IMG/VR virus record: IMGVR_UViG_2698536508_000029
Direction: 5' to 3' (one strand)
DNA from: a virus
Lineage: Duplodnaviria; Heunggongvirae; Uroviricota; Caudoviricetes
DNA: 5,393 nt
Shown: piece after piece, positions 1-5,393 of the stretch
Numbering within the stretch: the first letter of the stretch is position 1
Layout: each line of letters begins with the position of its first letter
Program-made: the position numbers and the translations under genes
Notes under the pieces: model-generated
Seen by the model: the letters and a program-made list of their open reading frames with translations, nothing else
Told to the model about the DNA's origin: nothing
Databases searched by the model: none

Positions 1-19
1 TTTTACTTCTTCATGCCAA

Positions 20-46
20 AAGGGAGCTATCTCCCTTGTTTGAATT
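20..46 (+). terminator. Candidate intrinsic terminator of the upstream plus-strand gene
   Basis: Perfect inverted repeat AGGGAG (21-26) / CTCCCT (31-36) with 4-nt loop CTAT, followed by T-rich TGTTTGAATT. The U-tract is interrupted, so strength is uncertain. In K-12 gene order (from memory) the upstream gene would be gyrA. Confidence 0.4.
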
Positions 47-148
47 GAAAAGTCCAGGCTGCAAAGTCTGGGCTTTTGTCGTATTAGGGCACGGTAAAGT
101 TTGGCTGTGCCCGTAAAAAATGGCTGGCTATACACAAGGAATGTGGCA

Positions 149-2453
<2,305 letters not shown>

Positions 2454-2457
<4 letters not shown>

Positions 2458-3524
2458 GATATTTCAATTTTGTCCCACTCCCGCCCGCGACTGTCCCTGT
2501 AACGCGCCGCCATTGAATCTGATTTATGCCCGAGAAGACGTTGAGCAAACTTATCGCCAATCTGATTCCGGTATAGCCTCGCCGACAGGCTGCGCAGTTC
2601 ATGGAATGTTGGCGGGTCTCCATCAAATGAGAGTCCAGATGCATTTCTCGCCTTTGTAAAATACTTAGATACTGTTTTCGGGGAAAGCGGTTCGTGATGC
2701 GTTGATGCAATTATTGTTTCACTGCCGCTGGCCTCCCTGCATTTCTGTAGTGTATCAGCCAATGAGATATTGAGCGCGTCAATCGTTAGCGTCAGCGGAA
2801 TGGCGAGCTTAGCCCCTGTTTTACCCTGCTCAATGTGAAGATGGTTGTCGTTTATGTCTGACCATTTCATTCTGCATAAATCGCCTACTCTCTGCCCTGT
2901 AACGACAGCCAAATCCATTGCCAGCCTCAGCCAGATTGGGAGCGGTTCGGCTGCATGGTAAATCGCGACATATTCATTAGCTGTCAGTCTTGAACGCCTT
3001 ACTTCTGATTTTGCTGTGCGGGTTGCTGTTACCGGATTCGTAGCCACATGCCCCTCGGCTATTGCCTCACGAAAAACGTCAACAAGGGTTGACCTGATTA
3101 ATTTTGCGGAAGCCGCTTTACCTTCTGCTACGTAGGTGTTTAGCATTGCTGCCACCTCTTTCGTTGATATGTCAGCGAGCGGTTTGTCCGGCAATTTTCT
3201 TCGGATTGCCCTGATTTTGCTGGCGTAGTCGAGTAGAGTTTTCGGCCTGATACCCCTCTCGCTGAGGATTGTTTCATATCGGTCAAGCCACGCATGAAGA
3301 GTGATTGCGTCAGCGCCTTTAATTCTGTCTATCAGTGACTCACGCCTGTTCCCGGATAGCAACTCAATATTGGCCTGTATTGCTTCAGTGATTGCTATCC
3401 TCCTGTCTCGGCCTAATCCGAACTCTTTACCCGTCCTTGGGTCCCTGTAGCAGTAATATCCATTGTTTCTTATATAAAGGTTAGGGGGTAAATCCCGGCG
3501 CTCATGACTTCGCCTTCTTCCCAT
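2454..3524 (-). CDS. int: Tyrosine site-specific integrase, lambda Int family, 356 aa
   Basis: Same length as lambda Int. N-terminal ~55 residues (MGRRRSHERRDLPPNLYIRNNGYYCYRDPRTGKEFGLGRDRRIAITEAIQANIEL) match lambda Int from memory. Catalytic signature present: R in GQRVGDLC, K in QGKTGAKLAIP, HELRSLSARL, LLGHKSD and the tyrosine in AARYRD. Confidence 0.95.
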
Positions 3525-3720
3525 TTCTGATCCTCTTCAAAAGGCTACTTGTTACTGGTCGATTTAAGTCAACCTTTACCGCTGATTCGTGGAACAGATA
3601 CTCTCTTCCATCCTTAACCGGAGGAGGGAATATCCTGCATTCGCGCACCCATCGACGAACTGTTTCAAGGCTTCTTGGGCGTCGCTGGCGTGCATTCCAC
3701 TCCTGAAGTGTCAAGTACAT
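3502..3720 (-). CDS. xis: Excisionase Xis, 72 aa
   Basis: MYLTLQEWNARQRRPRSLETVRRWVRECRIFPPPVKDGREYLFHESAVKVDLNRPVT..LLKRIRNGKKAKS is near-identical to lambda Xis from memory (differs at about 2 residues). The 3' end overlaps the int start by 23 bp, as in lambda. Confidence 0.95.
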   Translation of the reverse strand: MYLTLQEWNARQRRPRSLETVRRWVRECRIFPPPVKDGREYLFHESAVKVDLNRPVTSSLLKRIRNGKKAKS

Positions 3721-3746
3721 CGCAAAGTCTCCGCAATTACACGCAA
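3707..3746 (-). promoter_or_regulatory. cII-dependent pI-type promoter (TTGC-N6-TTGC at 3746..3733, weak -10 near the xis ATG)
   Basis: Minus strand reads TTGCGTGTAATTGC-GGAGACTTTGCGA-TGTACT. This is the tetrad repeat TTGC-N6-TTGC of cII-activated promoters, with a poor -10 13 nt downstream overlapping the xis start, so the transcript would begin inside xis and express int without xis. Confidence 0.55.
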
Positions 3747-3767
3747 GAAAAGCCGCATTGATGCGGC
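3744..3767 (-). terminator. Hairpin plus U-tract (candidate intrinsic terminator or attenuator) upstream of xis
   Basis: Minus strand GCCGCA-UCAA-UGCGGC (perfect 6-bp GC-rich stem, 4-nt loop) followed immediately by UUUUCUUG; the U-tract overlaps the first TTGC of the pI site. Confidence 0.45.
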
Positions 3768-3825
3768 AATGGTAGGTCTGGATATCTTGAGAAATGAACA
3801 GGCCTCATTGAGTGTGAGGCTGTGG

Positions 3826-4170
3826 TTAGTCCTTGCGTAGCTCGCTAATTCTTCTGTAAGTCTCTGGTGCTTTGTTTCCGTGTATCTTCATTTCAGACTT
3901 CAACAGAGCGACGAGGGAATCCCATTCGTTGAGGATGCCTTTGAATGCCGGAACGCGCTTTGCAACCTTGTCGAATGAATCTCTGATTTCTGGAATCTGC
4001 TCAACAAGTGCAACGCATCGCCGGAAGTCTGCTGCGTCATGTGGAGCGCCGAAGTGATGACCATAGATATTCTTTTTCAGTCCACATGCGATTGAGGCAA
4101 GAGTTGCGCTACTGATGCCAACATCGCCAGTCGATTGCCATTTCAAAACCTTCATAGCCAAATCTGACAT
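3826..4170 (-). CDS. Hypothetical phage accessory protein, 114 aa
   Basis: ORF with ATG at 4170 preceded by GGAGA 7 nt upstream; stop TAA at 3826-3828. No transmembrane segment evident; contains a His-rich segment GHHFGAPHDAADFRRC. I could not assign it to any family. Confidence 0.7.
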   Translation of the reverse strand: MSDLAMKVLKWQSTGDVGISSATLASIACGLKKNIYGHHFGAPHDAADFRRCVALVEQIPEIRDSFDKVAKRVPAFKGILNEWDSLVALLKSEMKIHGNKAPETYRRISELRKD

Positions 4171-4180
4171 TTCTTGTCTC

Positions 4181-4208
4181 CATAAAACAAAACCCGCCGT
4201 AGCGAGTT
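4181..4208 (-). terminator. Hairpin with UACG tetraloop plus U-tract, ending ~10 nt before the 114-aa gene's RBS
   Basis: Minus strand AACUCGC-UACG-GCGGGUU (7-bp stem including one G-U pair) followed by UUGUUUUAU, then GGAGA and the ATG at 4170. Confidence 0.4.
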
Positions 4209-4260
4209 CAGATAAAAGAAATCCCCGCGAGTGCGAGGATTGTTATTCATTGCCGATATT

Positions 4261-4286
4261 CACCTTTATCGCGAACACCTTTACCG
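4261..4286. repeat. Two direct repeats CACCTTTAYCG (4261-4271 and 4276-4286), 15-bp period
   Basis: 10 of 11 positions identical, separated by 4 bp, lying immediately 3' of the 80-aa ORF stop in the 118-bp non-coding spacer. Confidence 0.35.
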
Positions 4287-4288
4287 GT

Positions 4289-4531
4289 TTATCTCCTTTG
4301 CATGGCGCGTAATTTTTTCAGATGGTTCTCCTGCTCTGTTTCAGCCAGAATTTGTCGGTATTCCTGGTGATCGATCCGTTCAAACAGTTCATTAAAATCG
4401 TTTATTTTTACCGACTGTGTTCGCCCATCCATTCTTCTGTACAACACAGTGTTGTTTATGCAGCGAAGAATTTTTATCGGGTAGCCGGCGCTATCGGTGT
4501 ATATCTGACCACGTTGAATCAGAGCGAACAT
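4289..4531 (-). CDS. Hypothetical small phage protein, 80 aa (possibly DUF4222-like; unverified)
   Basis: ATG at 4531 with GGGGA 7 nt upstream; the tracked 98-aa form starts at a TTG with no RBS. Beta-rich-looking N-terminal part (IQRGQIYTDSAGYPIKILR...VLYRRMDGRTQSVKINDF) and a basic C-terminal tail HLKKLRAMQRR. Confidence 0.65.
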   Translation of the reverse strand: MFALIQRGQIYTDSAGYPIKILRCINNTVLYRRMDGRTQSVKINDFNELFERIDHQEYRQILAETEQENHLKKLRAMQRR

Positions 4532-4605
4532 TCCTTTATCCCCAGCGGAAAAGCGAATACAGAATAAATGCCACCGCGATTGCAACTCCTACAGCGGTGA
4601 ATGCT

Positions 4606-4956
4606 TCAGGCCAATTCATCATTCACTCCCTGCGGCGGTTCTGGTAGCAGCATCCAGTACAAGGCGTTCCCTAACCACGATAAAGTGCCGTCGCTCAACT
4701 CCACGTATTCCTCTTGTACCTGTCCTGCCATATACTCACCGTGCTTTGAATAAATTAAAATCCAATCATCTTGAGCGGGCATTCGCTCACTACAGCTTAT
4801 CCAACCACCCGGACTTACCGGAGAGTTGCCAGTCTTACGCATGGCAATCTCCACGATTTCAACCATATCTCCTGGCAGAATTTTACAAAGCTGGCCAAAG
4901 CGCCTCTGCTGCCTGGCATACTCGAGGATGTGCTCCAGTTTGGTTCGATTAATCAT
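4606..4956 (-). CDS. Phage protein with C-terminal DUF551-like domain, 116 aa
   Basis: ATG at 4956 preceded by AAGGGAG. The C-terminal half (GWISCSERMPAQDDWILIY...LSWLGNALYWMLLPEPP) fits the W-I...P...W...WMPLPEPP pattern I recall for DUF551 phage proteins. Start overlaps the stop of the upstream ORF (ATGA). Confidence 0.75.
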   Translation of the reverse strand: MINRTKLEHILEYARQQRRFGQLCKILPGDMVEIVEIAMRKTGNSPVSPGGWISCSERMPAQDDWILIYSKHGEYMAGQVQEEYVELSDGTLSWLGNALYWMLLPEPPQGVNDELA

Positions 4957-5393
4957 GATTTATCTCCCTTAAGCATGGCTGCACGGCAGGCGTTCCAGCC
5001 TCTCACCTCTGCAATAGCTGCAACAGCATCAACTGTGTACATGCTAAGAGGGTTAGGCATTGGTTTTTCTTCCGGTACTACTGGCGATGGCTGTTTGGCT
5101 TCTAAATCAGCAATTCTGTCAACTACGGCATCGACAGCATCTGAAAAACTGAAACAGTTACTCCACTCAGGCCTATCCCCGGTTGTTGCGAAGTACATAT
5201 CAGCTAAAGCAGACTCAGCATGGTCACGCTCGTTAATGAGTTGCTCTTCGCTTTTTGAGGTGTACTGGCAATAGCGGACTCTACCATTTGTTCTTTTTTC
5301 AAGCAGCCATCTGATGATATTTTTCCCTGAAGGCTGCTGGGGAGATATTCCCCAGACGATAGTGACGACGCTGACGATTGTAGAAAATCTCAT
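4953..5393 (-). CDS. Hypothetical phage protein, >=146 aa (possibly 5'-truncated by the window edge)
   Basis: Open minus-strand frame up to the window edge, where an ATG occupies 5391-5393. Pro/Glu-rich linker AKQPSPVVPEEKPMPNPLS precedes a C-terminal segment MYTVDAVAAIAEVRGWNACRAAMLKGDKS. The true start cannot be fixed because upstream sequence is missing. Confidence 0.6.
   Translation of the reverse strand: MRFSTIVSVVTIVWGISPQQPSGKNIIRWLLEKRTNGRVRYCQYTSKSEEQLINERDHAESALADMYFATTGDRPEWSNCFSFSDAVDAVVDRIADLEAKQPSPVVPEEKPMPNPLSMYTVDAVAAIAEVRGWNACRAAMLKGDKS

Follow-up and report, generated by a model that had tools for sequence, protein, structure and literature searches.

The closest described relatives of the integration module considered here are those of the phages lambda and HK022, which together form the classical case of a changed integration address in which it was the protein that changed. 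Dorgai et al. are said to have traced, in 1995, the difference in core specificity between the two integrases (Int) to residues 99, 282, 283, 287 and 319. A set of 'five key residues' behind the lambda/HK022 specificity difference is given in PMC6007267, and N99 is named as a specificity residue in PMC10863862. HK022 is targeted to the torS-torT intergenic region, with sites that read, from sequence, ATCCTTT-AGGTGAA-TAAGTTG for attP and GCACTTT-AGGTGAA-AAAGGTT for the K-12 attB, and prophages are found at torS-torT in about 5% of E. coli genomes (PMC6814406).

A further property of the HK022 system is its tolerance of different overlap sequences. According to passages of PMC7736782, the overlap of HK022 'can be arbitrary if identical between the recombining pair', and the requirements for B and B' shrink to 5 bp each; the HK022 pairs engineered by Kolot, Yagil and co-workers that are described there allow one Int to be given many addresses by means of a matched overlap and short half-sites. 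Those pairs were designed and were tested in human cells, whereas the pairs discussed below are natural to E. coli and are known from their sequence. The host gene yfaT has also been reported before, being listed among prophage-disrupted genes by Bobay et al. 2013 (PMC3603311) and by TIGER (PMC7192596); this is the same target as here, disrupted by insertion, although the passages on yfaT in these two papers give no HK022-type label for the integrase and no description of a core or overlap. Earlier work thus covers HK022 Int and the freedom of its overlap, the occupation of torS-torT by prophages and the use of yfaT as a target of prophages, but a limited literature collection contained neither a link between an HK022-type Int and yfaT nor a natural series of overlaps for HK022 Int.

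The stretch of DNA analysed here (the window, 5,393 nucleotides) is, judged from its sequence, the attL junction (B-O-P', followed by int and xis) of a lambdoid prophage of about 50 kb in an EHEC-type E. coli. BLAST finds no difference from E. coli O26:H11 strain 11368 in positions 1-5255 (100% identity), whilst the last 138 nt (5256-5393), which lie inside an ead/Ea22-like gene, diverge from it; the source of the window is therefore a related strain that has another Ea22 variant. The host gene upstream of the insertion is yfaA (149-1837, plus strand), which encodes a DUF2138 protein (Pfam E = 5e-289) and is annotated as such by RefSeq in the identical 11368 sequence. It is followed by yfaT (1834-2439, plus strand; Pfam DUF1175), which has been truncated and fused by the prophage and has a C-terminus that differs from that of K-12 YfaT. 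The yfaT open reading frame in the window is host sequence up to 2382, with its last 18 codons and stop supplied by the P' arm of the prophage; the last 19 codons of YfaT are replaced upon integration, and yfaA-yfaT is cut off from the downstream alpha-2-macroglobulin gene. A search of 5426 complete E. coli genomes found exactly this yfaT junction in 177 of them, and the site is used in several serogroup lineages.

Within strain 11368 the prophage is about 49.7 kb in length (NC_013361, about 3,089,154-3,138,905; loci L006 19160-49000 and L005 20100-40311) and has a complete lambdoid layout, its far end being marked by a 90-bp remnant of yfaT at attR. The effector genes that adjoin the attR end are nleA and a gene of the nleG family, a type of prophage that is seen in O26/O103/O111-type E. 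coli. The copy in 11368 is probably defective because it has an internal stop in the terminase large subunit gene and carries ISEc22 inside gene J.

The int gene occupies 2454-3524 on the minus strand and encodes a protein of 356 aa that is identical to WP_000533670.1, which RefSeq annotates only as 'tyrosine-type recombinase/integrase'. The open reading frame proposed from the sequence alone is a real and complete lambda-family integrase: Pfam places Arm-DNA-bind_1 at residues 1-68, Phage_int_SAM_1/Phage_int_M at 81-170 and Phage_integrase at 179-346, residues 1-355 are matched by the solved structures of lambda Int (5j0n and 1z1g), and all six catalytic residues (R212, K235, H308, R311, H333 and Y342) are present. 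The three domains, the catalytic residues and an attP layout with an adjacent xis are those of the lambda-family heterobivalent integrases. The adjacent gene, xis (3502-3720, minus strand; Pfam Exc, E = 3.6e-41), overlaps the start of int and encodes an excisionase of 72 aa that differs from HK022 Xis at one residue and from lambda Xis at 2 of 72.

Beyond xis is an open reading frame of 114 aa (3826-4170, minus strand) that has no Pfam match, the product of which (WP_001281192.1) also adjoins xis in an mdtA-type prophage of strain TB4019. In both HK022 and a Stx1a phage this region is conserved at 97-100% identity, and it thus travels with the int-xis block.

Compared with lambda, Int has the same three-domain architecture and catalytic residues, yet only 76% overall amino acid identity. 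Residues 1-55 are identical in both (55/55), in agreement with the lambda-like N-terminus described in the sequence-only reading of this DNA, and identity then falls to 6 of 20 over residues 56-75. That reading had divergence starting around residue 56 and running through the core-binding region, of which the onset and the core-binding region (69.5% over 65-169) hold, although the divergence also runs on through the catalytic domain (74.3% over 170-356). A sliding comparison of nucleotides puts the drop in identity to lambda, from about 97% down to about 65-70%, at int codon ~55 (window ~3360), with int codons 1-55 and xis (3361-3720, minus strand) forming the classical block shared by lambda and HK022, at about 97% to lambda. 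Both the identical residues 1-55 and the sharp drop at codon ~55 are what an independent new lambda Int mosaic, unrelated to HK022 and sharing only the lambda arm-binding domain, would look like, and a mosaic that merely parallels the lambda/HK022 case is what had been proposed. Alignment to HK022 Int refutes it, since the comparison of HK022 Int with lambda gives the identical result (55/55, and 6/20 over residues 56-75) and the Int of the window is identical to HK022 Int at 348 of 356 residues (97.8%) across all domains (64/64 for residues 1-64, 104/105 for 65-169 and 180/187 for 170-356), leaving the independent origin with hardly any probability at all. These alignments assign Int to the HK022 type, which is well studied, and not to a new mosaic of lambda, the domain-by-domain alignment having shown it to be essentially identical to a characterised integrase.

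The similarity to HK022 (X51962, NC_002166) extends to the whole module, with the same order of sib, P arm, core, P' arm, int and xis. int is 96.7% identical to that of HK022 in nucleotides (about 73% to lambda) with a dN/dS of 0.07, a value that indicates strong purifying selection relative to HK022 int. The 8 differences between the two proteins are S137A, S234G, Q261K, S267G, K275T, D278E, N303D and the C-terminus, which ends ...EIDK in HK022 and ...EIS here. At residues 99, 282, 283, 287 and 319 the protein has D, P, K, K and R, which is the HK022 state, where lambda has N, S, G, R and E. The lambda state of the specificity residues, the TTTATAC overlap and the lambda attB are all absent.

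The attachment site itself is where the locus departs from HK022. In the window the attL core is CAACTTA-TGACATG-GAAGTTG (2365-2385), which consists of the bacterial core-type half-site B (CAACTTA, 2365-2371, plus strand), positioned by alignment with the HK022 and lambda cores and identical to the empty yfaT site of K-12, the 7-bp overlap O (TGACATG, 2372-2378, plus strand) and the phage half-site C' (GAAGTTG, 2379-2385, plus strand), which aligns with the TAAGTTG of HK022 and lambda. The 11368 attR reads CTCCTTC-TGACATG-GAAGGAC and the attB of the empty K-12 site, inside the 3' end of yfaT, reads CAACTTA-TGACATG-GAAGGAC, so that the attP core is reconstructed as CTCCTTC-TGACATG-GAAGTTG and the attP junction of an excised yfaT-type phage as CTCCTTCTGACATGGAAGTTGTATATT. 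The window follows attB up to 2382 and attR follows attB from the overlap onward, with the crossover block TGACATGGAAG (2372-2382) common to attL, attR and attB when checked against attR and the empty K-12 site; within this block the 7-bp overlap is placed by analogy with the AGGTGAA of HK022. The hybrid junction of an excised window-type attP, CCTTCTGACATGGAAGTTGTATATTAAAA, had no exact match in the metagenome and viral contigs scanned.

The P' arm (2386-2457, plus strand) aligns with those of HK022 (59/71, 83% identical) and lambda (50/71). It contains an IHF-consensus site H' (TATCAATATGTTA, 2406-2418, plus strand) and three arm-type sites, also on the plus strand, P'1 (TGGTCATTAT, 2427-2436), P'2 (TAATCAAAAT, 2437-2446) and P'3 (AAACCATTAT, 2448-2457), which agree with their lambda counterparts in 8/10, 8/10 and 9/10 positions and so bear out the lambda-like arm sites reported from sequence alone; P'3 overlaps the int stop codon. 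The sib hairpin and the sites P1 and P2 are found on the P arm at attR, again in alignment with HK022 and lambda. The arm-type consensus and IHF H' are thus common to all three phages. In HK022 lysogens an outward promoter inside the prophage at attL drives torS (PMC6814406), and the homologous P' arm region here (2386-2460, 83% identical) faces the 3' end of yfaT (1834-2385) in antisense.

An overlap different from the lambda TTTATAC and a target other than that of lambda had both been put forward, and the comparison of attL, attR and the empty K-12 site establishes both, with TGACATG as overlap and attB in yfaT. The flanking half-sites had been described as fitting CAACTTNNT, which is correct for CAACTT but not for the ninth base, which is G in B (CAACTTATG) and A in C' (CAACTTCCA) instead of T. 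Only lambda-compatible CAACTT half-sites could be seen in that reading, because C and B' belong to attR, which is not part of the window. It is these two that are of the HK022 kind, with C being CTCCTTC and B' GAAGGAC, compared with ATCCTTT and AAAGGTT in HK022 and with CAGCTTT for the C of lambda. The B' of lambda is TAACTTG. All four yfaT half-sites run parallel to their HK022 counterparts (C TCCTT, C' AAGTTG, B ACTT and B' AAGG), although the base beside the overlap differs from HK022 in each of the four, and the overlap has only one position of seven in common with AGGTGAA.

The integrase is therefore a characterised one, whilst its attB, in yfaT with overlap TGACATG, is not the torS-torT site with overlap AGGTGAA that is known for HK022. 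We consider it likely, from these comparisons, that this HK022-type module lies in yfaT and not at torS-torT owing to the TGACATG overlap of its attP, the half-sites having stayed HK022-like. During strand exchange the overlaps of the two partners have to be identical, while the overlap itself is not read by Int, so that the overlap together with fitting half-sites in yfaT would constitute the address. An attP core cassette carrying a different overlap could in this way match a site in yfaT that happens to offer HK022-compatible half-sites. This would fit the tolerance of arbitrary overlaps described for HK022 in passages of PMC7736782.

Whether the enzyme itself could have been adapted can be judged from phages that carry the same protein at the other site. 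The Stx1a-converting phages LC744181-LC744184 adjoin torS, a location read directly from their sequence, and have an attL of GCACTTA-AGGTGAA-TAAGTTG, a canonical HK022-type core, yet their Int is identical to that of the window through residue 355. Substitutions in the core-binding or catalytic domain that adapt Int to the new core would be one explanation of the change of target, and several of the 8 differences from HK022 Int do lie in the catalytic domain, near K235 or in the 275-287 region. However, all of them except the C-terminus are also found in the Int of these torS-torT Stx1a phages, and among 20 HK022-type Ints representing four att types no position within residues 1-355 tracks att type or is diagnostic of the yfaT type. 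The differences between att types are confined to the C-terminal one or two residues (S versus DK or NK), which are encoded inside P'3. As the five specificity residues are also all in the HK022 state and the half-sites stay HK022-like, a switch encoded in the protein seems very improbable. The specificity switch suggested by the sequence-only reading thus stands at the level of the target, with the evidence placing it in att DNA and not in the protein. It is most likely that retargeting occurred in the attP DNA, because the same or near-identical Ints are found at torS-torT, yehP and ibs-mdtA (see below), and the differences between the proteins are probably irrelevant to targeting.

The Stx1a phages also give an indication of how the module is put together. 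LC744181 is 100% identical in nucleotides to the window over 2503-3548, but there are many mismatches over 2360-2502, a divergent att cassette that is made up of the core, P' arm and int's last ~16 codons (its last ~50 nt), and within the int part of which the mismatches have a third-codon spacing. With one segment diverged and the next identical, the att DNA and the body of int have separate histories. The duplication of 15 bp annotated in LC744181 is imperfect, reading CTTAAGGTGAATAAG in attL and CTTTAGGTGAAAAAG in attR (L003 231-245; L009 309-323), and the base immediately left of the overlap is A in its attL and T in the K-12 attB and in attR.

The completely identical tract over 2503-3548 shows recent recombination, and the body of int may consequently postdate the insertion; for the same reason, the occurrence of one int body with two att types is no proof that it acts on both. 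The present int body could then be a later replacement, with the insertion in yfaT made by another Int allele or as a one-off event at a secondary site that descent has since fixed, and with the int-xis tract overwritten afterwards from a co-resident HK022-type prophage, in such a way that Int and the yfaT sites may not be a working pair; we regard this as unlikely. The sharp breakpoint at 2503 next to full identity with a Stx1a phage is what such a replacement would leave behind, and the opportunity exists, as the chromosome of strain 2013C-4187 carries one torS-type and one yfaT-type prophage. The TGACATG core also occurs with another P' arm and a decayed int (82% aa identity) in relic junctions, and free attP was absent from the metagenome and viral contigs scanned. 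The direction of transfer, however, seems to be the opposite one: the Int allele is uniform (355-356/356) in all seven yfaT loci with a readable Int, whilst torS-type Ints are polymorphic, which suggests that the yfaT prophage was the donor and not the recipient. Moreover the decayed int of the relics is itself HK022-related (D99, P282, R319), the half-sites C and B' resemble those of HK022 and not those of lambda, and the use of the yfaT site in several serogroup lineages speaks against the replacement as well. Retargeting through the att DNA of a module that would work with its present Int remains the preferred reading. The intact open reading frame, the dN/dS of 0.07 and the precise attL and attR are indirect signs that Int may recombine its own sites, attP with attB and attL with attR, and we infer that the insertion in yfaT was catalysed by this Int, which may still be able to act and to excise the prophage.

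The relic junctions are found in E. coli 2013C-4465 (NZ_CP015241; locus L008, about 3115-4252) and at twelve further loci. In 2013C-4465 there is an intact attP-like junction, CTCCTTC-TGACATG-GAAGTTG, with the same P arm, followed by a different P' arm and then by a decayed HK022-related int with 82% aa identity and internal stops, the residues of which are D99/P282/A283/R287/R319. It is located inside a prophage, with tail-fibre genes on one side and the effectors nleH1-2 and nleF on the other, and has the appearance of a junction at which two tandem phages with a common TGACATG overlap became fused. The relic int was considered as a separate functional third lineage of Int, a candidate that was rejected as it is a decayed HK022-related pseudogene, broken by internal stops and scrambled at its N-terminus.

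The yfaT site is not the only further address. Among 5426 complete E. coli genomes, about 400 carry an HK022-type int gene (at least 90% nucleotide identity). When the conserved P' arm motif was used to scan IMG/VR, with follow-up in E. coli genomes, two further cores were found that lie beside HK022-type Ints with 96-99% identity to that of the window and the same five specificity residues. The first, GTACTTT-TGAAATC-AAAGTTT, belongs to an HK022-type prophage inside yehP (locus L015, 6666-6760; L062), a junction seen only in one IMG/VR contig and in none of the 5426 complete E. coli genomes. The second, GGCCTTA-AATAAGG-AAAGGGT, belongs to HK022-type prophages whose insertion point is immediately upstream of an ibs toxin gene and of mdtA (loci L044 and L045, about 1590-1700; L026, 6308-6420; L063 for K-12), and one Int associated with it is identical to that of the window at 352 of 356 residues. 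This core combines the left half-site of the lysogens' attL with the right one of the empty K-12 site; the left half-site of the empty K-12 site is GGCCATA and not GGCCTTA, thus it is either polymorphic or was changed at integration. A scan of genome contigs with the P' arm motif gave 15 matches, of which 14 were due to chance in AT-rich sequence from unrelated organisms and the only genuine one was a torS-type attL in Escherichia whittamii.

Taken with the yfaT site, these cores raise the idea that HK022-type integrases are a natural 'programmable' system, in which near-identical Ints would serve at least four addresses through swappable core cassettes and prophages would co-reside without competition; we put this forward tentatively, at a little under an even chance. 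Ints that are 95-99.7% identical would serve torS-torT, yfaT, yehP and the region upstream of ibs-mdtA, each address being set only by an attP core cassette of ~140 bp between a conserved sib-P1 and P'/int. Whilst such prophages would have Int and Xis in common and possibly act in trans on each other's sites, their differing overlaps would prevent both competition for one attB and recombination between co-resident prophages.

For the nleA/nleG-bearing prophage of O26/O103/O111 EHEC, the analysis identifies the integration module, and it shows an exchange of the int-xis tract of this module with co-resident Stx1a phages. If the inference of retargeting through att DNA holds, yfaT, yehP and ibs-mdtA would provide orthogonal att pairs, ready-made and validated by nature, for the widely used tools that are based on HK022 Int, such as CRIM plasmids and cassette exchange. 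For the phages themselves, it would mean that a temperate phage may change its address by its att DNA first, with the integrase unchanged, and would stand as the counterpart to what is classically described for lambda and HK022.
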